A DNA stretch of 64,000 bases. It comes from Bacilli bacterium. GTDB taxonomy: Bacteria; Bacillota_I; Bacilli_A; RF39; UBA660. Under the pieces are notes generated by a model. That model was given only the letters and a program-made list of their open reading frames with translations. It made no database searches and was not told where the DNA came from. The position numbers and the translations under genes are program-made. Shown one piece after another: positions 8,816 to 58,480 of this stretch. Numbering within the stretch: the first letter of the stretch is position 1; every line of letters begins with the position of its first letter. The stretch lies in contig JAFWMN010000006.1 in the NCBI GenBank assembly GCA_017513865.1, positions 107,064 through 171,063 on the forward strand, read 5' to 3'.

Positions 8816-9680
8816 AAAAATCAAATTAGACGAAGATTTGTCTAATGAGGAACTTTGTAATAAAGTTCTTGACGATCTTCTTTCTTTAACTGGTTTGAAT
8901 TCTGTTAAAAAAGAGGTTATAAAACTTGCTCATTATTTAAAGTTTTTGAAAAAAGTAAGTTCAAAAGCAAATCTTGATAAGCTCAACTTACATATGGTTT
9001 TTAAGGGAAATCCAGGAACCGGAAAGACAACTGTAGCTAGAATTATGGCAAATATTCTTTATTATTTGGGCTATTTAGAAAATGATGAGATAGTGGAAGT
9101 AACACCGACAGATTTTATCGCGGGATACCTTGGTCAAACGGGTATAAAAACAAAAAAACTTTTAGAAAAGTGCCGTGGGGGTCTTATATTTATAGATGAG
9201 GCTTATAGTTTTAATAAAGGAAAAGACGAAGGTGATAATTCTTTTGCTGGAGAAGCTATTGCGGAGATAATCAAGGAAATGGAATCTAAAGAAACCGTAT
9301 TTATCTTTGCTGGATATGGTGATGAAATGGAAGAATTCATTAATTTGAATCCTGGTATTAGATCCCGCATCGGCTATCATATTGATTTTGAAGATTATTC
9401 TGAAGAAGAGCTTTTACAAATATTTTTTTCTAAATTGGAAAAAACTGGTTTTTCTTTATATGAAGATGCAGTTGAGGAGGTAAAAAAAATAATAAAAACC
9501 AAATCTCACGAAAAAAACTTTGGTAATGGTAGAATGATAGATAATTTATATAACAAATTACTTTTAGAACATGCAATGATTAACTGTGATGAGATTGATG
9601 AAGACAAATTATTAACTATTTCTAAAGAGGCAGTCTTAAATATTGAATTTAAAGGAAAGGCGGCGACTTATTTTGACTAA
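8781..9680 (+). CDS. SpoVK/CbbX-family AAA+ ATPase.
   Basis: Walker A 'MVFKGNPGTGKTTVARIMA' is essentially identical to SpoVK. Walker B is 'GLIFIDEAYSF', and arginine-finger and sensor regions are present. Confidence 0.8.
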   Translation: MEDDFLKNPNPKKIKLDEDLSNEELCNKVLDDLLSLTGLNSVKKEVIKLAHYLKFLKKVSSKANLDKLNLHMVFKGNPGTGKTTVARIMANILYYLGYLENDEIVEVTPTDFIAGYLGQTGIKTKKLLEKCRGGLIFIDEAYSFNKGKDEGDNSFAGEAIAEIIKEMESKETVFIFAGYGDEMEEFINLNPGIRSRIGYHIDFEDYSEEELLQIFFSKLEKTGFSLYEDAVEEVKKIIKTKSHEKNFGNGRMIDNLYNKLLLEHAMINCDEIDEDKLLTISKEAVLNIEFKGKAATYFD

Positions 9681-10212
9681 TATATTTGAAAACAAAATAT
9701 ATCAAAAACTAATTGATAATAGAATTATATTTTTAAATGGTGAAATAGATGATGAGTCGGCAAGCATGGTTGTTGCCAAGCTTTTGTATCTAGATTCTAT
9801 AAGCCATGAAGATATAGTAATATATATTAACTCTCCAGGAGGAAGTGTGACGAGCGGGCTTATGATATATGATACTATCAAATACTTAAAATCAGATGTT
9901 TCGACTATTAGTATAGGGTTATCAGCTTCGATGGCTTCAATTTTACTTATGTCGGGAACGCATGGTAAGCGAAAAATCCTTCCACACGGAAAAGTAATGC
10001 TTCATGAACTTTCAACAACAACGGGGGGAAAAATTTCCGATATTTTAGTTGCGGCTAATGAAGCAAAAAAAACGAATGAAATTCTCACAAAAATAATTTC
10101 TGAAAACAGCAAGTTAAATTATGAGCAGATTAAAGATAATTTAACCAAAGATTTATGGCTTGATAGTAATAAAGCTTTAGAATATGGCATTGTTGATAAA
10201 GTTATTTGCTAA
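9643..10212 (+). CDS. clpP: ATP-dependent Clp protease proteolytic subunit.
   Basis: ClpP motifs are present: 'IIFLNGEIDD…YINSPGGSVTSGLMIYDT…ISIGLSASMASILL…KRKILPHGKVMLHELS'. A TTG start (alternative TTG at ~9673) sits inside the 3' end of the AAA gene. Confidence 0.85.
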   Translation: MNLKERRRLILTNIFENKIYQKLIDNRIIFLNGEIDDESASMVVAKLLYLDSISHEDIVIYINSPGGSVTSGLMIYDTIKYLKSDVSTISIGLSASMASILLMSGTHGKRKILPHGKVMLHELSTTTGGKISDILVAANEAKKTNEILTKIISENSKLNYEQIKDNLTKDLWLDSNKALEYGIVDKVIC

Positions 10213-21600: not shown

Positions 21601-22122
21601 ATGAAAAAATGTGTAATATTATTAATAATTATTAGTTTGTTTTATATATCTATATCTAGCTTTTTTTCTAAGAAACTTGCGGTACCTAGCGATGCTTTAA
21701 GGATAAGAATAATTCCTAATAGTAATTCTAACTATGATCAATTAGTTAAAGGAAAAGTTAAAGATAAGTTAGAAGTTACTCTCTATGATTTACTTAGAAA
21801 TGCTTCTAGTAGTGCAGAAGCCCGAAAAATTATAATTAATAATCTTGATTTGGTTGATAAAGATGTTTCCAAAATATTGTCTGGTGAAAATTATGGTTAT
21901 AAGATTAAATATGGTTATAATTATTTTCCAATGAAAAGATATAAAGGAATAAAATATGAAGAAGGTTATTATGAGTCTTTACTTGTTACCTTAGGAAAGG
22001 GTGAAGGGGATAATTGGTGGTGTGTTTTGTTTCCGCCTCTTTGTTTAATTGAGGCTGAAGAAAATACAGAAATTGAATATAAATCTATGGTGAAAGAGTT
22101 GTTAGAAAAATATTTGTCTTAA
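21601..22122 (+). CDS. spoIIR: Stage II sporulation protein R.
   Basis: It has a signal/TM anchor, 'ALRIRIIPNSNS', and the SpoIIR hallmark 'GEGDNWWCVLFPPLC'. Confidence 0.8.
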   Translation: MKKCVILLIIISLFYISISSFFSKKLAVPSDALRIRIIPNSNSNYDQLVKGKVKDKLEVTLYDLLRNASSSAEARKIIINNLDLVDKDVSKILSGENYGYKIKYGYNYFPMKRYKGIKYEEGYYESLLVTLGKGEGDNWWCVLFPPLCLIEAEENTEIEYKSMVKELLEKYLS

Positions 22123-24730: not shown

Positions 24731-24814
24731 TTTTTAAAAAAATGTTTGCTACAATATATTCGCTTATGAATTTCTATGGCTTGATTTTTAAGTCATGGCG
24801 GAAGGAGAGATAAT

Positions 24815-25027
24815 ATGAAAAAAGGTATTCATCCAGAATATATGGAAACAAAAGTTACTTGTGCTTGTGGAAATACTTTTACAGTAAAATCTAACAAGCC
24901 AGAATTAGAAGTGGAAGTTTGTGATAAATGTCACCCATTCTTTACTGGAAAACAAGGAGCAGTAAAAAAAGCTGGTAGAGTTGAAAAATTCAACAAAAAA
25001 TATGGTTTTGATAAAGAGGCTAAATAG
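24815..25027 (+). CDS. rpmE: 50S ribosomal protein L31 (zinc-ribbon type).
   Basis: MKKGIHPEY…CACGNTF…[10 protein letters not shown] is present, preceded by a GGAAGGAGAG RBS. Confidence 0.93.
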
Positions 25028-47972: not shown

Positions 47973-47977
47973 TTTTG

Positions 47978-48003
47978 AAAAGTCCGTATTTACGGGCTTT
48001 TTT
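47978..48003 (+). terminator. Rho-independent terminator after rpsI.
   Basis: AAAGTCCGT-attt-ACGGGCTTT (one G·U pair) plus T6. Confidence 0.6.
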
Positions 48004-48155
48004 CAATGTTTAATTATAAAAAATAGTATTTTTTATGGGATGCAGGCTACAAGTATATTACAAGGTTTTAAAAACTTTTATTTATGTTGGTAATATAAAT
48101 CAGAGAAACAGATTAAGATTAGTGTGGTATAATTATAATTGAAAGGAGCATAGAT

Positions 48156-48404
48156 ATGTATAAGGATTTTATTGGTGAAAAAGTTATAATTGTTGTTTCT
48201 TCAAGAGGGGATAATTTGCTAGAGTATATTGGTACTTTATCATCTGAAAATGGTGATTTGATAGAATTAATTAATGTAGATATTTCATATTTAATGCTTA
48301 ATTTTCAAAAAGGAATTTTTGGAGATAATATTACCAGATATAAACAAGGTTTAAATAAAGTAATTATAAATAAGAGATATATTATTTCTTGCAATAAACA
48401 ATGA
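48156..48404 (+). CDS. Hypothetical small protein (82 aa).
   Basis: An AAAGGAGCA RBS is present, with an upstream TGtggTATAAT -10 element. No domain was recognised. Confidence 0.4.
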   Translation: MYKDFIGEKVIIVVSSRGDNLLEYIGTLSSENGDLIELINVDISYLMLNFQKGIFGDNITRYKQGLNKVIINKRYIISCNKQ

Positions 48405-48478
48405 AAAATGGTATCTTGAAGAACATGATAAGCTGTTATTGATGAGGTCATATGCTATAATTATATAAGGGTGATGAT

Positions 48479-49102
48479 ATGAATGATTACTTTGGTCATG
48501 ATGAATATTGGAAAGAACATATGAATGAAAGTTTAGAAGCAGACATGTGGATTGATGAATATAAAAGTTATTTTAATACTGGCGGATTATGTTTAGATTT
48601 AGGTTGCGGTATGGGTCAATTTACAAAAAGGCTTATGGAATACGGATATGAAGTTATCCCGTTAGATATTTCTGAAATAGCTCTTAATAAAGTGCAAGAG
48701 TTTAACAGTAATATTTTAAAAGCTGATATGCGACATTCTTTACCTTTTCATGATGAGACGTTTGATTTAGTGTTTGCTAATTTATCTATTCATTATTTTT
48801 CAGATGATGATACAAAAAAGCTTATTAATGAGGTTAAAAGAATTTTAAAAAATGGTGGATTATTTATTGGTAGTGTTAATGGTATAAAAAATTTTCAAAG
48901 TATTAAAGATACTGCAGAAGTGCTTGATTATCATTTTTATTTAAATAGAGTAAAACACATTAGATTATTTGATGTAGATGATTTAAAGAAATATTTAAAT
49001 ATATTTAAAGTGTTAAAAATAGATGAAAGAGAAATAACAAGGTTTGAAAAAAACAATAGTTGTTTATTGTTTTTTACGAAAAAGCAGGATTTTAATTATT
49101 GA
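48479..49102 (+). CDS. Class I SAM-dependent methyltransferase (YbaJ-like).
   Basis: Motif I is 'LDLGCGMGQF'. It sits in the rpsI-ybaJ-ybaK-cwlD position seen in Bacillus. Confidence 0.75.
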   Translation: MNDYFGHDEYWKEHMNESLEADMWIDEYKSYFNTGGLCLDLGCGMGQFTKRLMEYGYEVIPLDISEIALNKVQEFNSNILKADMRHSLPFHDETFDLVFANLSIHYFSDDDTKKLINEVKRILKNGGLFIGSVNGIKNFQSIKDTAEVLDYHFYLNRVKHIRLFDVDDLKKYLNIFKVLKIDEREITRFEKNNSCLLFFTKKQDFNY

Positions 49103-49167
49103 TTATAAAATGATTTTTTTGTGGAGGCACACAAATTTTATATTTCATGATATAATTAAGGTGTAGG

Positions 49168-49540
49168 ATGATAGATATGGTAAAAAAGCTATTTGGGGAA
49201 ATTAATTTAACATGGAAGAAGTTGATTATATTTTCTGTTGTGATTGGAGTATATACCGGTATAGTGGCAATGCTTCCTATAACAAAAGATACTTCTTTTG
49301 CTGATATATCTATTTCTTTTGAGTGGTGGAGAATCTTGAATAGTTTTTGATGATACTTATAAAGTTTCTTTGAAAGATGAGAAATATGGGAAATTATATA
49401 TTGTTTATGAAAAAAATATTGAAGATTATATGATAAATGCTGAATTTAAGAAAACTGGAATCTTGAATCACCAAGTGGTGAGAAAACGGAATTTGATTTA
49501 AAAATTGAAAGAAGTTCATATGATGTTAGGAAAAAATAAT
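49168..49540 (+). pseudogene. Frameshifted small membrane-anchored protein, broken at homopolymer runs into three reading-frame pieces.
   Basis: The ORF 49168-49350 (TM helix) stops after a T5 run. The +1 frame then continues 'DDTYKVSLKDEKYGKLYIVYEKN…' and a further shift continues '…ESPSGEKTEFDLKIERSSYDVRKK'. Confidence 0.35.
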
Positions 49541-49548
49541 TTAGAAAG

Positions 49549-49776
49549 TTGAGTATAATTATGAATGGATTTTCTTGTTTAATGTTAATATTTGCTGTTT
49601 TAGTATTTATAGCTGGCCTTTATATTTATACCGGTCATAATAGCGAACTATTAATATGGAAAGGATATAATAAAAATGCGACTAAAAGTGAATTAGAAAA
49701 TATTGGCAAATGGACAATGATAGCTAGTTTAGTTCCATTTATATTATTTATAGTAGGATTTTTTATAGAGGTTTGA
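49549..49776 (+). CDS. Small two-TM membrane protein (75 aa).
   Basis: It has two hydrophobic helices flanking a short polar loop. Its function is unknown. Confidence 0.4.
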   Translation: MSIIMNGFSCLMLIFAVLVFIAGLYIYTGHNSELLIWKGYNKNATKSELENIGKWTMIASLVPFILFIVGFFIEV

Positions 49777-49782
49777 GACGTT

Positions 49783-50238
49783 ATGAAAAAGATATTTATA
49801 TATTATAGTTTAAGTGGTAATGGTGATTTTGTTGCTTCCTACTTAAAAGAAAAAGGCTTTGATATTAGAAAAGTAATATCTAGTGATAAGATGCCCCAGA
49901 ATACTTTTTTAAGAATTATGACTGGTGGTTTTTTGGCAGGAATTGGTCATAAATCAAAACTAATTAATTTTGATAATGATATAAGGGATTATGATGAGAT
50001 AATAATTGGTTCACCTATTTGGAATGGTAGACTTTCTTGTCCTATTAATTCAGTATTAGATAATCTTGATTTAAACAACAAAAGATTAACTTTTATATTA
50101 TATAGTGGTTCTGGCGAGGCGCCCAAAGTAAATGAAAAATTGTCTCAGAAATTTCCCCAATCTAAAATTATTCATTTAAAAGAACCAAAAAGTAACATAG
50201 AAAACATGAAAACAATTTTTAATGAGGAGGACATATGA
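49783..50238 (+). CDS. Flavodoxin-like fold protein (Flavodoxin_4-type).
   Basis: 'KIFIYYSLSGNGDF' and 'IIIGSPIWNG' FMN-binding-like motifs are present. Confidence 0.55.
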   Translation: MKKIFIYYSLSGNGDFVASYLKEKGFDIRKVISSDKMPQNTFLRIMTGGFLAGIGHKSKLINFDNDIRDYDEIIIGSPIWNGRLSCPINSVLDNLDLNNKRLTFILYSGSGEAPKVNEKLSQKFPQSKIIHLKEPKSNIENMKTIFNEEDI

Positions 50239-51323
50239 ATAAAATTGATATTTTAAAATTTAATAATGAAAAAAAGAATATGGTGTATGGACCTTATTCA
50301 ATATTAGTGGCTTTATCAATGCTTGATGAAGGAGCTACGGAGGCTACTAAAGAAAGTTTAGATTTGTTTTTAGGAAATATTCCTATAAATAAATATAATA
50401 ATATTGAAAATGTTTTGTCAGTAGCTAATAAAATGTATATTAAAGATGATATAGCGAAAGATATAAACGAATCTTATAAAAATGTTTTAAGTGACAAGTA
50501 TAATGCTGAAATTGAAATTAATGATTTTAGCGATGAGTTTGTTATGAATAATTGGATTAACAATAAAACTTTCGGGCAGATAAAAAATATTGTTACTAAA
50601 GATGCTCTTTTAAATAATAATTTATTCTTAATTAATACTACGGCGATCGATATGGAATGGCAAGCAGAAATAAATGGTAGTTCTGTTAATGGCGGAATAT
50701 TTAACAATGGTTCAGAAGTAGAGGCAAGTTATATTTATGGTTTTACAAAGAATATGGCTTCTTATTATGAGAATGACGAGGTTTTATCTTTAGGTCTTAA
50801 TTTAAAAAAATATGATGATAATGATTATGAATTTGTGGCTATTCAACCTAAAGGTGTTGAACTTAGTGAGTATATAAATAATTTAAGTGACAATAAAGTA
50901 AATAATATTCTTGCAAATTTGAAATCTTTGTTAGACGAACCAAGAAATGTAGATATAAGTATTCCTAAATTTTCTTTTAATTATAGTTTGAATTGTTTAA
51001 GTACTTTTAAAAATATGGGTTTAGAAAATGTTTTTGAAAATGCCCATTTTGGCAAAATTGGAGATCTTCCAACACTTAATTTAGATGTTCTTCATAAAAC
51101 TAATATCGATTTTTCTGAGGTTGGTTTAAAAGCCGCAAGTGCAACAGTAGTATTATTATTTGAAGGTGCTTATTTCGATCCAAATGAAAGACTAATTATT
51201 GAAATAAACAAACCATTTATGTTTGTTATAAGAGAAAAGAATAAAAACGATATTTTGTTTATGGGTACTGTTTATAATCCTGTTTTATGGGCTGATGATT
51301 CAAAAAACTATGCTTATAAATAA
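50235..51323 (+). CDS. Serpin-family serine protease inhibitor (intracellular, no signal peptide).
   Basis: It has the 'YGPYSILVALSMLDEGATEATKESL' serpin N-terminal helix, a hinge/RCL 'EVGLKAASATVVLL', and the C-terminal 'KPFMFVIRE…ILFMGTVYNP'. A GAGGAGG RBS is present, and the start overlaps the flavodoxin stop (ATGA). Confidence 0.75.
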   Translation: MNKIDILKFNNEKKNMVYGPYSILVALSMLDEGATEATKESLDLFLGNIPINKYNNIENVLSVANKMYIKDDIAKDINESYKNVLSDKYNAEIEINDFSDEFVMNNWINNKTFGQIKNIVTKDALLNNNLFLINTTAIDMEWQAEINGSSVNGGIFNNGSEVEASYIYGFTKNMASYYENDEVLSLGLNLKKYDDNDYEFVAIQPKGVELSEYINNLSDNKVNNILANLKSLLDEPRNVDISIPKFSFNYSLNCLSTFKNMGLENVFENAHFGKIGDLPTLNLDVLHKTNIDFSEVGLKAASATVVLLFEGAYFDPNERLIIEINKPFMFVIREKNKNDILFMGTVYNPVLWADDSKNYAYK

Positions 51324-51332
51324 ATTTGTGTA

Positions 51333-51360
51333 AAAAATGGTGTAAAGTGCCATTTTTTTG
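51333..51360 (+). terminator. Rho-independent terminator after the serpin gene.
   Basis: AAAATGG-loop-CCATTTTTTT. Confidence 0.5.
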
Positions 51361-51371
51361 TTTCAAAAATA

Positions 51372-51502
51372 TTGTTATTTTGAAAAAGTGTGCATATAAT
51401 TGTATCATAAGGGAGGATGTTAAAGTGGGGCTTGCTATAGCGCTAAATTCAATTTAAGACATCTTCTTCCTTTACAAAAGTCCAAGTTTATTGGACTTTT
51501 TT
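51372..51502 (+). promoter_or_regulatory. Micro transcription unit or attenuator-like leader: a promoter (TTGTTA, 17-nt spacer, TATAAT), SD AAGGGAGG, a 7-codon ORF (MLKWGLL, 51417-51440) and an intrinsic terminator (51477-51502).
   Basis: All elements were read directly from the sequence. It lies 34 nt upstream of an rRNA methyltransferase / RluA operon that also has its own -10 element (TGaTATAAT). Confidence 0.4.
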
Positions 51503-51535
51503 GTTTATAATGATATAATGTTAATAGGTGATTTT

Positions 51536-53807: not shown

Positions 53808-54707
53808 ATGAAAAAAATTGTTTTTGCAGTACTATTATCCCTTTTTGTTTTTACAAAGCCCGTTTTAGCTGAAGAAACAACAATAACGTATAATAAGTTG
53901 CAAGGAATTGCTTATAACCAGAAAATAGGCAACGAATTAAAATCGAATATAGTAACTTTTTTCCAAATGAAAAATCGAATTGCTTACTGTATTGAGCCAG
54001 GTGTGGAAATAAATGAAAGGTATTATGATATTGGCTATGATTGGAATGTGACTAATTTGTCTAGTGAATTGAAAGAAGAAATAGAAAAAATAGGATATTA
54101 TGGCTATGAATATCCCGGGCATAATAATAGTTATTATTATATTGCAGCTCAAGAGTTGATTTGGAAAGCTGTAAGACCAGATATCGAAGTGACATGGACT
54201 ACTGAAAAAAATTTAGGTGGGTCAATTATTGATATCAGTAAAGAGAAAAATGAAATAATGGATTTAGTTAATAATCATTCTTTAGTTCCAAGTTTTGCAG
54301 ATCAAATGTTTATTGATTATACGGGCAAAGAAATAATTTTAAAAGATGAAAATAATGTTCTAGATTATTATGAAGTTTCTGATAGTAACAATCATGCAAT
54401 TATTAGAGATGGTAATGTGTTAAAAATAAAGCTCAACGAAAAAAAAGTAGATGATGAAGAAATATTTTTGACCCGAAAATATTATGATAAGGAACCATTA
54501 TTAGTTTATAGTAGAGGAAATTCACAAAAATTAGCTGCTCTTAGAATTACAATGGATAGAAGATCTAGTTTCACTATTGGAAATAAAGAAGAACCAGAAG
54601 AAATTATAGAAGTTCCTGATACTGGGATTGATATTAATTTAGGGGAGTCAATATTTATGACTGTCTTAGGCTTAGGAATGATTATTAGTGTTTTTAAAAT
54701 TAATTAA
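53808..54707 (+). CDS. Sortase-anchored surface protein with a putative thioester (TQXA-like) domain and a VPDTG sorting signal.
   Basis: A signal peptide is present. 'AYCIEPG' fits the TED Cys motif [YFL]C-phi-[DNE], and 'IAAQELIWKA' fits the Gln motif phi-Q-x-phi-phi-W. The C-terminus is 'VPDTG' plus a hydrophobic segment and a 'KIN' tail. Confidence 0.55.
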   Translation: MKKIVFAVLLSLFVFTKPVLAEETTITYNKLQGIAYNQKIGNELKSNIVTFFQMKNRIAYCIEPGVEINERYYDIGYDWNVTNLSSELKEEIEKIGYYGYEYPGHNNSYYYIAAQELIWKAVRPDIEVTWTTEKNLGGSIIDISKEKNEIMDLVNNHSLVPSFADQMFIDYTGKEIILKDENNVLDYYEVSDSNNHAIIRDGNVLKIKLNEKKVDDEEIFLTRKYYDKEPLLVYSRGNSQKLAALRITMDRRSSFTIGNKEEPEEIIEVPDTGIDINLGESIFMTVLGLGMIISVFKIN

Positions 54708-55239
54708 ATTTTTATCATTTGTATTTTTGTTTTTTTCATTTAGTCTATGTAATTATAATGAAAACAGATTAAATAATAAAGTAGATGAATATATAAGTCA
54801 CAATTATTTAAACGAAAAAGTTTCAGCAGAGCCATCTAAACCGATTACTTTAAGATCTAATCAAAGTATTTATATTCCTAAAATTAATTTAGAGAAAAAT
54901 TTATATAGCATTAATTCTAAACTTAATACAGTTAATAAGAATATTCAAATATTAAAAAATTCTGATATGCCGGATAAAGAAAACGGTAATTTTGTATTAG
55001 CCGCACATAGTGGGAATAGTTCTGTTTCTTATTTTCATAATTTATATAAACTTGATATCGGTGATGAGGTAATAATAAAATATAATAATCATAAATATAT
55101 TTATGCTGTGGATAAAAAATATGAGGTAATTAAAACAGGTAAAGTATCAATTAAAAGGGATAAAAACAAAAATTCAATAACGTTAATAACTTGTAAGGAA
55201 AAAGACAAGCAATTAGTTGTTATTGGCTATTTAACTTAA
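54688..55239 (+). CDS. Sortase (small, class B/D-like) transpeptidase.
   Basis: It has an N-terminal TM anchor, a 'LAAHSG' His motif and the 'TLITC' catalytic Cys motif. A GTG start overlaps the substrate gene's 3' end. Confidence 0.8.
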   Translation: MFLKLIKFLSFVFLFFSFSLCNYNENRLNNKVDEYISHNYLNEKVSAEPSKPITLRSNQSIYIPKINLEKNLYSINSKLNTVNKNIQILKNSDMPDKENGNFVLAAHSGNSSVSYFHNLYKLDIGDEVIIKYNNHKYIYAVDKKYEVIKTGKVSIKRDKNKNSITLITCKEKDKQLVVIGYLT

Positions 55240-55295: not shown

Positions 55296-55958
55296 ATGAG
55301 GAAAACTCGTATAGTTATATTTGTGGTTTTTTTAATATTTTTATCGTTTTTTAATGTAGTTTGGGCTAGTGATAAAAAAATGAATTTGTTTTCAAAAGTA
55401 ATATATTTAGATCCTGGACATGGAGGGGCAGATAGTGGGGCTTATTATAAGAATTATAGAGAAGCTGACATTAATCTCCAAATAAGTAAAAAACTTATGG
55501 ATATTTTAAAAAAAGAAGGGGCTATAGTTTATTTGACAAGGTATGATGATTATGATTTATCTATTTCTAATGCTTGGAATAGAAAACGTAGTGATTTGTC
55601 TAGAAGAGCTAATATTATAAATAAATCTAAATGTGATTTATATTTATCTATTCATTTAAATGCTGAGGATAGTGGTTTATTTAGAGGAGCTGAAGTTTAT
55701 TATGATACGATAAATGCTGAAAATGAAAAAATTGCTTATATTTTTCAAGATGAATTCAGAAGACATTTGAATTCAAATAGGAGTTTTAAGGAAAACAGTA
55801 CTAAATATTTACAAAGAAGAGTTAATAGACCAGGTGTTTTATTAGAGGTTGGCTTTTTATCTAATGCTAGCGATAGGGCTTTATTAATAGATGCGACTTA
55901 TCAAAATAAAATAGCTAATGTTATAAAAACTGGTATTATTAGATATTTTGATAGTTAA
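55296..55958 (+). CDS. cwlD: N-acetylmuramoyl-L-alanine amidase, Amidase_3 family (CwlD-like, germination-specific).
   Basis: A signal/TM segment is followed by 'VIYLDPGHGGADSGA', 'SIHLNAED' and 'RGAEVYY'. It sits in the rpsI-…-cwlD synteny seen in Bacillus. Confidence 0.8.
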   Translation: MRKTRIVIFVVFLIFLSFFNVVWASDKKMNLFSKVIYLDPGHGGADSGAYYKNYREADINLQISKKLMDILKKEGAIVYLTRYDDYDLSISNAWNRKRSDLSRRANIINKSKCDLYLSIHLNAEDSGLFRGAEVYYDTINAENEKIAYIFQDEFRRHLNSNRSFKENSTKYLQRRVNRPGVLLEVGFLSNASDRALLIDATYQNKIANVIKTGIIRYFDS

Positions 55959-56022
55959 TGTGCATAGGAAAAAAATGTCTATAATACCTTTTTTTGTGTT
56001 ATAATGAATAATAGGTGATAAT

Positions 56023-56955
56023 ATGACAACGAAAACATTTCGAACTTTAGATGAACAAATTGGTATTTTAAGAAGCAAGGGACTTACTGTTAATGACGAA
56101 GAAAATGCTAGAAAAGTTTTATATAGAGAAAATTACTTTTTTATAAGTGGATATAGGCATTTATTTACGCTTAAAGGAGAAAAAGATAATTATATAAAGG
56201 GAACCACTTTTGATGAACTTTATGCGACTTTTGTTTTTGATAGAAGAATTAGAAATACCTTTTTTAAGAATATTTTAATTGTTGAAAATAATTTAAAATC
56301 AATTATGAGTTATCAATTGTCTAAGAAATATGGTATTAAAGAAAAAGACTATTTGGAACCAACAAATTTTTCTGATGATGCGATTAGATCAAGGCAAGTT
56401 TACGATGTTTTAAATAAAGTTAAAAGGCAAATTAGAGTTAATGGTAATAAGCATACAGCTACTTATCATTATATAAATAATTATGGATATATTCCTTTAT
56501 GGATTTTAGTTAAAGTTTTATCATTTGGAATTATGTCGGAGTTTTTTGATATTTTAAAACTAGAAGATAAAGAAGAAATTATAAAACCATATCAAATTGA
56601 TGTTGAAACAATGGTTGTATTTTTAGCTTTGCTTTCTAATTTTAGAAATGTTTGTGCGCATGAGGATATGCTTTATGATCATAGAACTCAAAGATCTATT
56701 CCTGATACAAAATATCATGAGGCATTAGGCATTGAAAAAAATGAGGATGGTTATATATACGGTAAAAATGATTTATTTAGTTTGGTAATTATTCTTAAAT
56801 ATATGCTTAGAGATGAAGAATTTTATGAAATGATAGATGAGATTAAAAGAGAAGTTGATCTTTTAGATGAAAATGTTGACATTGTTCCTTTAGACCATAT
56901 TTTAAACAAAATTGGTTTTCCTAGTAATTGGTATGATATAAAGGATCTTGATTAG
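56023..56955 (+). CDS. Abi_2 family (AbiD/AbiF-like) abortive-infection protein.
   Basis: It is ~310 aa, with 'RRIRNTFFKNILIVENNLKS' and the conserved 'LSNFRNVCAHEDMLYD' block typical of Abi_2. It has its own promoter (TGtgTTATAAT at ~55995). Confidence 0.65.
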   Translation: MTTKTFRTLDEQIGILRSKGLTVNDEENARKVLYRENYFFISGYRHLFTLKGEKDNYIKGTTFDELYATFVFDRRIRNTFFKNILIVENNLKSIMSYQLSKKYGIKEKDYLEPTNFSDDAIRSRQVYDVLNKVKRQIRVNGNKHTATYHYINNYGYIPLWILVKVLSFGIMSEFFDILKLEDKEEIIKPYQIDVETMVVFLALLSNFRNVCAHEDMLYDHRTQRSIPDTKYHEALGIEKNEDGYIYGKNDLFSLVIILKYMLRDEEFYEMIDEIKREVDLLDENVDIVPLDHILNKIGFPSNWYDIKDLD

Positions 56956-56965
56956 GAGGAGTAGT

Positions 56966-58042
56966 ATGAGAGAAAAAGGTAGAAATTTAATAATTTTAAT
57001 AATAGTATTTTGTTTAGGTGCTTGTGTGGCTTACTTTTTTATGGACAATAGTACACCTAGTTCTAATGGCCCAACAATAAATAAAAAAGTTACAATTACC
57101 TCTAATGATTCAATTAATGAATCTATTCAAAAAATTTATGATTCAGTAGTTGTGATTAGTAATTATCGAAATGGCAGATTAGCTGGTTATGGCTCAGGTT
57201 TTGTGTATAAGAAAGATAATAAAAATGGTTATATAATGACTAACAACCATGTTGTCGAAGGAGCTAGTGAGATTAAAGTTACTTTAAACTCTGGTGAAGA
57301 AGTAGAAGCCAAAGTTTTAGGAACCGATAGTTATATGGATATCGCTATTGTATCTATCGATGCTGACAAGGTAATGAATGTTGCAGAGATAGGTGATAGT
57401 TCTAAATCTAAGTTAGGTGATACTATTTTTACTGTAGGAACTCCAATAAGTACTGATTATTCAGGTACAGTTACTAAAGGAATTATTTCTGGTGAAAACA
57501 GAGAAATTACTGTTACTAATAAAGGAACATCCTATGTAATGGAGGCAATTCAAATTGATGCTTCTATTAATCCAGGGAATAGTGGTGGACCTCTCGCTAA
57601 CATTAATGGAGAAGTTATTGGTGTTAATTCTGTTAAACTTGTAGAAAACTCTATTGAAGGTATGGGCTTTGCTATTCCAATTGAAGTAGCTATGTCACAA
57701 GTTTCTAAACTCGAAAAGGGTGAAAAAATTGATAGACCTTTAATAGGAATCTCTTCTTATGATTTATCAATGGCAGTATATCTTGGTAGAACAGATATAA
57801 ATTCTAATATTAAAAATGGAGTTATTGTAAATTCTGTTGAAGAGGGTTCAGATGCAGCTGAAGCAGGAATTTTAAAAAATGATATAATTACTAAAGTTGA
57901 TGGTAAAGAAGTTAAAAGTTCCGCTCATTTAAAATATTTACTTTATAAGCATGAAATAGGAGATATTGTTAAATTAACTGTTTATAGAGAAAACAAAGAA
58001 AAAGAACTTACTTTAAAACTAACACATAAAATAGGAGACTAA
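56966..58042 (+). CDS. htrA: HtrA/DegP-family serine protease with a C-terminal PDZ domain.
   Basis: A TM anchor is present, with catalytic 'MTNNHVV' (His), a 'DIAIV' Asp and 'NPGNSGGPL' (Ser). The PDZ segment is 'GVIVNSVEEGSDAAEAGI'. A GGAGGAG RBS precedes ATG 56966. Confidence 0.88.
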   Translation: MREKGRNLIILIIVFCLGACVAYFFMDNSTPSSNGPTINKKVTITSNDSINESIQKIYDSVVVISNYRNGRLAGYGSGFVYKKDNKNGYIMTNNHVVEGASEIKVTLNSGEEVEAKVLGTDSYMDIAIVSIDADKVMNVAEIGDSSKSKLGDTIFTVGTPISTDYSGTVTKGIISGENREITVTNKGTSYVMEAIQIDASINPGNSGGPLANINGEVIGVNSVKLVENSIEGMGFAIPIEVAMSQVSKLEKGEKIDRPLIGISSYDLSMAVYLGRTDINSNIKNGVIVNSVEEGSDAAEAGILKNDIITKVDGKEVKSSAHLKYLLYKHEIGDIVKLTVYRENKEKELTLKLTHKIGD

Positions 58043-58054
58043 AATTAGTCTCCT

Positions 58055-58480
58055 TTATCTTATTTCCGGACAAGTTCCTATACTTGGAATGTAGAAACAA
58101 TGATTTTTATATCTTCCACTATTATATTGATCCCACCATGTTTTAGCGCAATTCTCATTATTTTTAGGGGCATAAAACCATAAAGCATTGGTTGCTGGAT
58201 AGTAGTATTCTCCTTTTAATACTCTTTCAGCCAGATTTTGTTCAGTAGTTGTTGGATTACTAAAAAAAAGAGGGTTATTAATTCCTGAAAAACCACCAGG
58301 GTTTTGATAAATAACATCAGTTATTGTTTTTGTATTAGTGAAAGTTAGGCAGTTTGCTAGGGCTCTATTGACAACGACATTGCCTACCATTAACATACCT
58401 AAATCACCTTCACCAAGAGCTTCGGCTCGCATTATTCTAGCTAGCAATTCTTTTTCTTTTGTTGATGCCTGTAAAATCAT
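58055..58480 (-). CDS. SleB/CwlJ-family spore cortex-lytic cell-wall hydrolase (Hydrolase_2).
   Basis: 'ELLARIMRAEALGEGDLGMLMVGNVVVNRA' is characteristic of the family, and the 141-aa length matches CwlJ. Confidence 0.75.
   Translation of the reverse strand: MILQASTKEKELLARIMRAEALGEGDLGMLMVGNVVVNRALANCLTFTNTKTITDVIYQNPGGFSGINNPLFFSNPTTTEQNLAERVLKGEYYYPATNALWFYAPKNNENCAKTWWDQYNSGRYKNHCFYIPSIGTCPEIR

Follow-up and report, generated by a model that had tools for sequence, protein, structure and literature searches.

The question raised by this locus is whether a serpin gene whose start codon overlaps the stop codon of a flavodoxin-like gene works together with that neighbour, and where the serpin would act. 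An earlier note on the window (the whole stretch of 64,000 nucleotides that was analysed) had described an intracellular serpin coupled to a redox-type protein and had suggested horizontal transfer as one origin. We consider it highly probable that the gene is a genuine, selectively maintained leaderless serpin, most likely cytoplasmic, of endospore-forming ruminant-gut Bacilli, and that the flavodoxin-like gene is a bystander. The two genes belong to a co-directional trio of which tm75 is the first gene (Table 1).

Table 1. Positions of the trio genes and of the signals around them, counted from the first letter of the window.
Feature	Position	Strand	Description	Basis
tm75	49561..49776 (extended ORF from TTG at 49549)	+	71-aa two-helix membrane protein	
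Flavodoxin-like ORF	49783..50238	+	151 aa; Flavodoxin_4 / FMN_red type	
Shine-Dalgarno GAGGAGG for serpin	50224..50230	+	within last codons of flavodoxin-like gene	
ATGA start/stop overlap, flavodoxin-like / serpin	50235..50238	+		read from sequence
Serpin ORF, leaderless	50235..51323	+	362 aa	Pfam, AlphaFold2, Foldseek, dN/dS
Hinge and reactive-centre loop	51117..51215	+	residues E295-P327 (EVGLKAASATVVLLFEGAYFDPNERLIIEINKP)	alignment, RCL table
Weak hairpin (AATGG-9 nt-CCATT) and T7 run	51336..51359	+	not called by the terminator scan	read from sequence

The gene was confirmed to encode a genuine serpin. Its product matches the Pfam Serpin profile (PF00079 / MEROPS I4) with an E value of 1.1e-49 (170 bits against a cut-off of 27), and residues 10-349 correspond to profile positions 17-370 of 370, a full-length match. 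The hinge GLKAASATVV (residues 297-306) and the C-terminal serpin core were both found to be kept, as the earlier note had read them, with the Pfam match running to the end of the profile. The serpin fold that it had claimed is also borne out by the AlphaFold2 model (pLDDT 84.7, pTM 0.80), for which the best 50 PDB matches in Foldseek are all serpins at TM values of about 0.7-0.78, headed by latent tengpin (E 2.4e-26). Tengpin is the nearest solved relative as well (E 7.8e-29, 28% identity over a full-length alignment), ahead of the other solved relatives by ten orders of magnitude in E. By Foldseek the model lies closer to loop-inserted (latent or cleaved) serpins than to native ones. Predicted serpin models often take the relaxed state, which is a known bias, and the latent or cleaved look of this model therefore counts neither way. 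The NCBIfam profile search matched no serpin model, the PHROG search returned one weak match (E 0.0019) to a family of unknown function, and the protein is 100% identical to the NCBI entry 'MAG: hypothetical protein IKG27_02325 [Bacilli bacterium]'. A dN/dS of 0.17-0.26 against its orthologues indicates purifying selection, and the ORF is intact in 9 contigs of the same species and in 15 members of its clade. The serpin is thus selectively maintained and appears to belong to a bacterial tengpin-like group.

The absence of a signal peptide, also claimed earlier, holds on closer reading. The nearest in-frame stop lies 4 codons upstream of the serpin ATG, which leaves no room for a signal peptide, and an MNK[ILT] start placed directly at helix A is common to all 15 leaderless members. 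Neither a signal peptide, a lipobox nor a TM anchor was found in the serpin, whereas its relatives have an additional 30-130 residues that include a TM helix; of the 70+ other serpin relatives, almost all carry a TM helix or lipobox at the N-terminus. The leaderless serpins form a small clade from uncultured herbivore-gut Bacilli that is monophyletic in 40/40 bootstraps of an NJ tree and nested in 15/40, so that the leaderless state may be either derived or ancestral. Their mean cysteine content is 1.9 per protein, while the serpin domains of 73 anchored relatives average 0.16 (median 0; Mann-Whitney p 2e-10), and this tolerance of cysteine fits a cytoplasmic location. With the missing leader and the cysteine content taken together, the serpin most likely remains in the cytoplasm after synthesis, so that the intracellular placement proposed earlier is retained as probable. 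The literature already recognises a class of leaderless or intracellular serpins in prokaryotes (PMC8233489, PMC10090351).

The clade is most closely related to extracellular serpins (membrane-anchored, lipoprotein, SLH-bearing or dockerin-bearing) found in anaerobic fungi and in herbivore-gut Clostridia, Bacilli and Saccharibacteria. The anchored, lipoprotein and SLH gut serpins (P0016-P0115, L013-L089) are 33-45% identical to the window serpin over the whole serpin domain and share with it the hinge FSEKG[ILV]KAAA, the s1C motif I[DN]KPF and the C-terminal W.DD..Y tail. Unlike it, they have N-terminal extensions of 30-130 residues that contain a TM helix, lipobox or SLH domains; they have almost no cysteine, and their canonical P1 residue is hypervariable whereas that of the leaderless clade is an invariant glycine. 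Fungal CBM10/dockerin serpins (P0083, P0111) are direct homologues (37-41% identity) from the same herbivore-gut habitat. Protection from proteases of the environment is the role ascribed to the cellulosomal serpins, namely celpin of Piromyces/Neocallimastix and PinA/PinB of Clostridium thermocellum, and PinA inhibits subtilisins (PMC8778642, PMC8201313). They are secreted and docked to the cellulosome, while the window serpin has neither a signal peptide nor a dockerin.

Tengpin of Thermoanaerobacter tengcongensis (PDB 2pee/2pef/2vh4; 'Group T', Spence et al. 2021), the best solved relative, is a proven inhibitor of leucocyte elastase (PMC1905895). Miropin, the siropins and the B. longum serpin are further bacterial Group T members. 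Tengpin and the window serpin agree in the hinge pattern G-x-K-A-x-A-x-T and in their long distal loop; the window serpin differs in having Leu instead of Thr at P14, one extra loop residue and Gly at the canonical P1. Within the 56-residue N-terminal region of tengpin, residues 37-56 clamp the native state, and deletion leaves a latent, inactive protein (PMC1905895). The window serpin has no counterpart of this latency-preventing region or of its clamp, and in the alignment its residue 11 falls at position 41 of the delta-31 chain. The archaeal Tk-serpin and Pnserpin, along with the 'housekeeping' intracellular prokaryotic serpins proposed by Spence et al. 2021, are comparable in their proposed role, that of an inhibitory serpin in control of an endogenous subtilisin-type protease (PMC8233489). 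All of these, however, fall into another serpin group (S / hub) and are distant from the window serpin in sequence.

In the reactive-centre loop, P17 is E295, P15 is G297, P14 is L298 and P12-P9 are AASA (A300-A301-S302-A303). Inhibitory serpins are marked by a hinge consensus over P17-P9 with small residues at P12-P9 (PMC8233489), and the window serpin fits this pattern (E-x-G-T/S-x-A-A-A-A, small P12-P9, no charged or bulky P14). Its P14 is an aliphatic, uncharged Leu instead of the usual Thr/Ser, and I/V/L is found at this position in the whole gut family. Across the aligned loops the hinge hardly varies, whereas P6-P2 and the P' side do. The canonical register puts P1 at G311 (bond G311-A312), although the tengpin alignment gives Y313 instead. 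Glycine, an unusual P1 residue, is invariant at the canonical position in 15/15 leaderless members, within a clade motif G-[ASC]-A-hydrophobic. Compared with alpha-1-antitrypsin, the loop has about 4-5 additional residues, so that the scissile bond is not assignable; model confidence falls to pLDDT <50 at residues 308-321. By analogy with its family, the serpin would act as a suicide-substrate inhibitor: a serine protease would cut the exposed loop somewhere within F309-F314 (LLFEGAYF), after which the hinge (GLKAASATV) would insert into beta-sheet A and trap the protease. The aromatic and hydrophobic loop residues would favour a subtilisin- or chymotrypsin-like target. Both the inhibitory activity and this target class are predicted from the family and the loop residues.

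The junction of the two genes reads GAGGAGGACATATGAATAAA, with the serpin ATG at 50235-50237 and the flavodoxin TGA at 50236-50238. The 4-nt ATGA overlap reported earlier is thus correct, and the same arrangement was observed in 9 contigs of the window species. Alignment with L001 (TTTT-TAATGA vs TTTTAAAATAA) shows the overlap to be the product of a 1-nt indel. In L001 a TAA stop and a 9-nt spacer separate flavodoxin and serpin; the indel removes both and lengthens the window flavodoxin by 4 codons. In L001 the serpin Shine-Dalgarno is conserved as AAGGAGGA and lies between the genes. Overlapping same-strand junctions make up 19/83 in the 64-kb window, and three are exact 4-nt overlaps, the other two being dnaB to M23 peptidase and adk to map. 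The overlap does not exceed what chance gives in so tightly packed a genome, and it arose recently and by accident.

A terminator scan found none between the flavodoxin-like gene and the serpin, and the first terminator that it called near the trio lies at 51476-51500. Since the genes also overlap, they very likely share a transcript; the co-expression that the earlier note had drawn from the overlap is therefore very likely at this level, and tm75 is probably co-transcribed with them. The weak hairpin in Table 1, which starts 13 nt after the serpin stop and is conserved in L001, may be the 3' end of the operon; L003 has an extra hairpin of its own after the serpin stop. An Rfam search of the conserved intergenic block gave no family; a small RNA of about 95 nt, at roughly 51407 to 51505, is a candidate. 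The promoter scan, with 28 sites against 29 expected, is uninformative on a separate serpin promoter.

The flavodoxin-like ORF matches FMN_red (PF03358, 5.8e-7) and Flavodoxin_4 (PF12682, 1.8e-6) in Pfam with 29.6 and 27.9 bits against curated cut-offs of 24, and the NCBIfam flavodoxin models score below cut-off. It fits the family of Flavodoxin_4 / WrbA-like short proteins (PDB 3edo/2mwm, 'putative trp repressor binding protein'), with 2mwm/3edo as nearest solved relative (1.1e-7), and keeps the YYS.SG loop and GSP[IV]W motif of that family. FMN binding is predicted from the intact phosphate-loop motif YYSLSGNG, whose counterpart in 3edo is YYSWSGET. The identical NCBI entry is annotated as 'NAD(P)H-dependent oxidoreductase'. 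At E<=1e-5 the gene product has 1192 homologues, with 60-75% identity for many of them, and the close ones are single genes in many unrelated contexts. PHROG and PADLOC searches gave nothing for this gene, whose dN/dS against L001 is 0.18, and we know of no member of the family that is paired with a protease inhibitor. The tm75 gene ends 6 nt upstream of the flavodoxin-like start, and a homologue (88.7% identity, dN/dS 0.096) lies directly upstream of the flavodoxin in L001/L002/L010. No family was found for tm75 in Pfam, PHROG or PADLOC. A holin function for tm75 was dropped, as it has no PHROG match and none to any holin family, and so was a link of the trio to phage defence, PADLOC having found nothing for tm75, flavodoxin or serpin.

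Among 86 serpin loci, a flavodoxin was found to adjoin the serpin only in the window species and one sister species (L001/L002/L010), and this adjacency is thus not kept in phylogenetically independent lineages. In the next sister lineage (L003/L004) the serpin occupies the syntenic site without a flavodoxin, and the serpin loci L005, L011 and L012 lie in unrelated contexts. Three flavodoxin homologues of 67-71% identity (L007-L009), sampled from more than 1000, were observed in three unrelated contexts with a serpin in 0/3. Neighbour clustering over the 86 loci showed no recurrent partner beyond lineage-specific synteny and no protease. The flavodoxin-like gene is a bystander of the serpin. 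The earlier note had taken the pairing as meaningful and had let it stand or fall with conservation in other genomes, which is essentially missing among these loci; the seemingly odd combination of serpin and redox protein comes down to gene packing in a variable island. The adjacency does survive in two lineages with dS ~1, which is compatible with, and not evidence for, a value of co-expression.

It is extremely unlikely that flavodoxin and serpin constitute a functional unit, co-translated by way of the ATGA overlap, for instance a redox-controlled inhibitor. The overlap and shared strand are real, no terminator was found between the genes, the trio is kept in the sister species despite dS ~1, and several clade members have a cysteine in the reactive loop. 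The loop of the window serpin, however, has none, the overlap arose from an indel where L001 has a stop and spacer, and 4-nt overlaps likewise join adk-map and dnaB-M23; the pair's occurrence in only one other species, its absence from the L003/L004 site and the unrelated contexts of the flavodoxin homologues argue against it as well. Recent horizontal transfer of the serpin, alone or with the flavodoxin, is very unlikely. The trio does lie in a variable island bounded by rpsI and an rRNA methyltransferase gene, where five sister lineages differ in the genes they carry, and members of the family occur in Bacilli, Clostridia, Saccharibacteria and fungi. Two sister lineages, L093 and L094, lack the serpin and have in common with the window rpsI or His_Phos, the methyltransferase, RluA, PIG-L, a TED protein and a sortase. 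However, the GC and codon skew proposed as a check was not seen (GC z -0.97, GC3 z -0.24, codon-usage rank 69/78, all typical of the window), and serpin dS to the L001 and L003 orthologues (0.89-1.07) equals that of flanking core genes, which indicates that the serpin diverged together with its flanks. No integrase, repeat or mobile-element gene adjoins the locus, and tblastn against phages and plasmids found only relatives of <=29% identity, for which reason mobile-element cargo was dropped. What is left of the earlier cargo suggestion is the variable island.

With the serpin standing on its own, its location and activity have to be weighed. A leaderless protein can still work outside the cell after lysis. 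Action on host, fungal or microbial gut proteases following release by lysis (e.g. of the mother cell) or by a non-classical route is nevertheless unlikely: the serpin has no export signal, its cysteine content resembles that of cytoplasmic proteins and differs from that of its anchored relatives, and the neighbouring tm75 has no holin-like match, although the close relatives are all extracellular or surface-anchored, the family is confined to gut microbiomes of herbivores and other animals, anaerobic-fungal cellulosomal serpins are among the relatives (PMC8778642) and the organism has sporulation genes. We also regard it as improbable that the serpin is non-inhibitory, rapidly self-inactivating (latency-prone) or drifting towards loss. 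The clamp that tengpin needs to stay native is missing, the model is loop-inserted, P14 is Leu and the canonical P1 Gly, serpin dN is the highest of the locus (0.15-0.28 vs 0.05-0.17 for downstream neighbours) and two sister lineages lack the gene; yet purifying selection, intact ORFs in the 9 contigs and 15 clade members, and the invariant hinge with small P12-P9 residues, an inhibitory signature (PMC8233489), speak for a maintained inhibitor, and most serpins do not need an N-terminal clamp.

As to the sporulation or germination protease that the earlier note had put forward as a possible target, the window does carry spoIIR, CwlD-like and SleB-like genes and a gene for an HtrA-like protease. 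The HtrA-like protein (56948-58042), which the earlier note had suggested, was rejected as a target: it has an N-terminal membrane anchor, its protease domain should therefore be outside the cell, and its gene is not adjacent. ClpP (9643-10212), with its enclosed chamber, and a weakly matching S26-like protein (419-1561) were also rejected, neither being adjacent or of suitable topology. The cysteine tolerance, the glycine that never varies at the canonical P1, and the G-[ASC]-A-hydrophobic motif point tentatively to the leaderless clade being a cytoplasmic offshoot of surface-anchored gut serpins that acquired an endogenous protease of endospore-forming rumen Bacilli as its new target, a proposal we regard as improbable at present. 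A signal-less subtilisin-type sporulation or germination protease could be an example of such a target. The clade, lacking the clamp that tengpin needs, may also be a self-timing inhibitor prone to latency.

The gut/rumen serpin family thus splits cleanly into anchored, nearly cysteine-free members and rare leaderless, cysteine-containing ones. The role of intracellular bacterial serpins is still called enigmatic in the literature (PMC8233489), and the window serpin is a concrete candidate for studying it. In addition, the leaderless clade provides a natural test of whether a tengpin-like serpin is able to stay native when the N-terminal clamp is missing.

The serpin gene and the flavodoxin-like gene before it were found exactly where an earlier note, made from the sequence alone, had placed them; its observation is confirmed, and its interpretation has partial support. 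The serpin is a full-length Pfam match (E 1.1e-49, profile positions 17-370 of 370), to which NCBIfam added nothing, and its nearest solved structure by sequence is tengpin (7.8e-29), with the next best serpins at 1e-19. An AlphaFold2 model built from 23 homologues (pLDDT 84.7, pTM 0.80) is disordered only at residues 308-321, the reactive-centre loop, and in a Foldseek search against the PDB its best 50 matches were all serpins, latent tengpin (2pef) being first at 2.4e-26. The model is closer to loop-inserted than to native conformers, a predicted state that we give no evidential weight. Serpin dN is the highest at the locus, but a dN/dS of 0.17-0.26 against orthologues of two sister lineages shows that the gene is under constraint.

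The absence of a signal peptide was also borne out. An in-frame TGA lies four codons upstream of the serpin ATG. A database search with the serpin yielded 129 relatives at E<=1e-10, and every one of the 15 nearest clusters (352-362 aa, 49-77% identity) begins MNK[ILT] at helix A. Next-tier relatives (33-45% identity, about 400-480 aa) carry an N-terminal transmembrane helix, a lipobox or SLH domains. The leaderless set was monophyletic in 40 of 40 bootstraps of an NJ tree and nested among the anchored forms in 15 of them. Exported proteins of Gram-positive bacteria are known to exclude cysteine. Each leaderless serpin has 0-5 cysteines (mean 1.9) whereas 73 anchored relatives average 0.16 in the serpin domain, with a median of 0 (p 2e-10). 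This contrast is independent of the missing leader and fits a cytoplasmic location, so that the window serpin is probably cytoplasmic. Leaderless prokaryotic serpins are a recognised though minor category (PMC8233489; PMC10090351).

The hinge read earlier as GLKAASATVV is present (E295-V-G297-L-K-A-A-S-A-T-V-V), with E at P17, G at P15 and AASA at P12-P9. Judged from these residues it is an inhibitory signature except for Leu at P14, which is I, V or L throughout the gut serpin family. The earlier note had proposed predicting P1. Counting from P15 gives G311, within LLFE-G-AYF, but the HMMER alignment to tengpin places Y313 opposite tengpin's canonical P1 Ala and the two registers disagree. 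All 15 leaderless members keep this glycine (motif G-[ASC]-A-[FYLRV]), and the same column is hypervariable among anchored relatives. From P15 to the s1C motif there are 26-30 residues across the whole gut family, and its reactive loop is therefore longer than that of classical serpins. The F/Y/F loop residues would point to a target of the subtilisin or chymotrypsin type.

On the likeliest reading, this serpin would work in the cytoplasm as a suicide substrate, inhibiting a serine protease that prefers hydrophobic residues. Tengpin, the closest known protein, requires residues 37-56 of its N-terminal region for the native state, and its bare serpin domain turns latent (PMC1905895). Unlike tengpin, the window serpin is without this N-terminal region; its residue 11 is matched to position 41 in the tengpin delta-31 chain and to position 26 in the latent one. 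Serine proteases within the window are ClpP, a membrane-anchored HtrA-like protein and a weak S26-like match, and no link of these to the serpin was found. The presence of spoIIR, CwlD-like and SleB-like genes in the window shows the organism to be an endospore former, but these genes do not connect the serpin to sporulation.

Coordinates of features in the stretch (window numbering)
Feature	Position	Strand	Basis or remark
ClpP	9643-10212		
spoIIR	21601-22122		
L31-Firmicutes ribosomal-protein leader (RF03156)	24774-24807	+	35 bits, just above gathering score; upstream of rpmE
rpmE	24815-25027		
rpsI-to-rRNA-methyltransferase turnover interval	47973-51323		comparison with L001, L003, L093, L094
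Class I SAM methyltransferase, 207 aa	48479-49102	+	PADLOC mad2 (mads_2) 6.6e-21
Probable gene remnant	49168-49548	+	60-aa ORF resembling a membrane-protein N-terminus, ending abruptly; then about 200 nt coding-like, out of frame
Flavodoxin-like ORF, 151 aa	49783-50238	+	ORF listing
Strong Shine-Dalgarno for serpin	50224-50230	+	sequence reading
Serpin ORF, 362 aa	50235-51323	+	ORF listing
Promoter-like site for the block	51372-51400		TTGTTA-17-TATAAT
Near-invariant intergenic block, about 110 nt	51393-51505	+	between serpin stop and methyltransferase start (~51536)
Intrinsic terminator in the block	51476-51500		
TED (thioester-domain) surface protein	53808-55239	+	PDTG-type sorting motif near C-terminus
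Envelope/sporulation-related gene run	55296-58480		CwlD-like Amidase_3; AbiD/Abi_2 abortive-infection protein (PADLOC AbiD 9e-61); HtrA-like protease (Trypsin_2 + PDZ), 8-nt overlap with the Abi gene; SleB-type cell-wall hydrolase (opposite strand)

The ATGA overlap had been taken to imply co-expression of the two genes. By direct reading the junction is GAGGAGGACATATGAATAAA, where the serpin ATG (50235-50237) shares bases with the flavodoxin-like TGA (50236-50238), and the overlap occurs in all nine contigs of the window's own species. In the sister-species locus L001 the flavodoxin stop is a TAA located 9 nt ahead of the serpin ATG; relative to it, a 1-nt deletion a few codons before shifts the frame in the window and carries the flavodoxin four codons further into ATGA. 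On the window as a whole, 84 of 91 ORFs lie on one strand with a median same-strand spacing of 17 nt. Genes overlap at 19 of the 83 same-strand junctions, and exact 4-nt overlaps occur three times, the other two at DnaB/M23-LysM peptidase and adenylate kinase/methionine aminopeptidase. With such tight packing and frequent overlaps, co-transcription of tm75 (the small membrane-protein gene just upstream), flavodoxin and serpin is likely. The overlap is real, but these comparisons indicate that it is recent and unremarkable, and a shared transcript reflects gene packing, not partnership.

Partnership was also not reflected in other genomes. The flavodoxin-like ORF matches Pfam FMN_red (5.8e-7) and Flavodoxin_4 (1.8e-6) above cut-off, with only sub-threshold flavodoxin matches in NCBIfam. 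Neighbourhoods of serpin orthologues were retrieved by exact protein, and a GTDB species-genome scan gave 198 relatives, from which the 80 best loci were retained, each with 5 kb of flanking sequence. In L001 and L002 the serpin is 77% identical and the region fully syntenic, running truA, rplM, rpsI, His_Phos, HTH, 71-aa membrane protein, flavodoxin and serpin, followed by methyltransferase, RluA, PIG-L, TED-domain protein and sortase. The 64% orthologue of the next sister lineage (L003/L004) stands between His_Phos and methyltransferase without a flavodoxin, and a 53% relative (L005) has a different gene context. By tblastn across 86 serpin loci, flavodoxin adjoins serpin in a single species, represented by L001, L002 and L010. 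Clustering three genes on each side of every compared serpin gave no family common beyond lineage-specific synteny, and no protease. The genes around two further leaderless members are unrelated: aquaporin and patatin at one locus, and VWA protein, methyltransferase and T4SS coupling protein at the other. The flavodoxin-like family is very large and well conserved (1192 matches, many at 60-75% identity), and three homologues at 67-71% identity occur in three differing contexts, all without a serpin. In these comparisons the pairing is not conserved, the idea of a meaningful unit is not supported, and the flavodoxin-like protein would be a bystander to the serpin. We noticed that L010 (CAZKKR010000010.1) is labelled 'uncultured Muribaculaceae bacterium'; its taxonomic label or bin assignment looks wrong, because its contig shows synteny and 77-92% protein identity with the window, a low-GC, sortase-bearing Firmicute.

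The serpin had also been considered possible cargo of horizontal transfer, and the variability of its surroundings agrees with this. From rpsI to the rRNA methyltransferase, the interval holds orf82, MTase207, remnant, tm75, flavodoxin and serpin in the window, His_Phos, HTH, tm71, flavodoxin and serpin in L001, and His_Phos and serpin in L003. Two more sister lineages, L093 and L094, share the methyltransferase, RluA, PIG-L, TED and sortase block (methyltransferase 88-89% identical), and serpin is absent from the syntenic interval of both. The upstream side of L093 ends in rpsI, with an HD-domain protein, Tag and an ABC-FtsX protein before the methyltransferase, and L094 has His_Phos and an unknown 176-aa ORF immediately upstream of it. 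Since the content differs in each of the five lineages, the interval is a gene-turnover hotspot. However, serpin GC (0.258, z -0.97), GC3 (0.163, z -0.24) and codon usage (rank 69 of 78, higher being more typical) are ordinary, as is the composition of the flavodoxin-like gene. Serpin dS (0.89-1.07) equals that of flanking genes (0.73-1.20), and therefore the serpin diverged in place in its three lineages. A phage and plasmid search gave no close relatives and a defence-system search no match; on this evidence the locus has no sign of recent transfer.

Other features were observed nearby. A stretch of L094 between two called genes has 68% protein identity to the probable remnant, and the 207-aa methyltransferase may be an orphan component or a generic methyltransferase match. 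The intergenic block 3' of the serpin is almost unchanged in five sister lineages (window, L001, L003, L093, L094) although the genes flanking it approach saturation at synonymous sites (dS about 1). It contains a long hairpin, GGGAGGAUGU paired with ACAUCUUCUUCC, with one compensatory U-A to C-G pair in L093 and L094, and a predicted fold of -29.4 kcal/mol (z -3.4). The block has one copy in the window, no Rfam family and no conserved ORF, and accompanies the methyltransferase/RluA operon, not the serpin; it may be a small RNA or a leader. The TED gene overlaps a dedicated sortase gene by 20 nt, a pair kept in all five sister lineages.

On a wider scale, the serpin family spans Bacilli, Clostridia, Saccharibacteria and the cellulosomal serpins of anaerobic fungi (PMC8778642), a range that indicates ancient transfer in the herbivore gut. 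Members from many gut Saccharibacteria (CPR; L065-L088, Candidatus Saccharibacteria/Nanosyncoccus MAGs) are membrane-anchored and syntenic with argS and an oligoribonuclease-like gene, and Neocallimastigomycota serpins (P0083, P0098, P0104, P0111) are fused to CBM10/dockerin or chitin-binding domains. This distribution suggests that the family crossed domains of life inside the herbivore gut. The clean split between leaderless and anchored members of the gut serpin family is the only aspect that is mildly novel.
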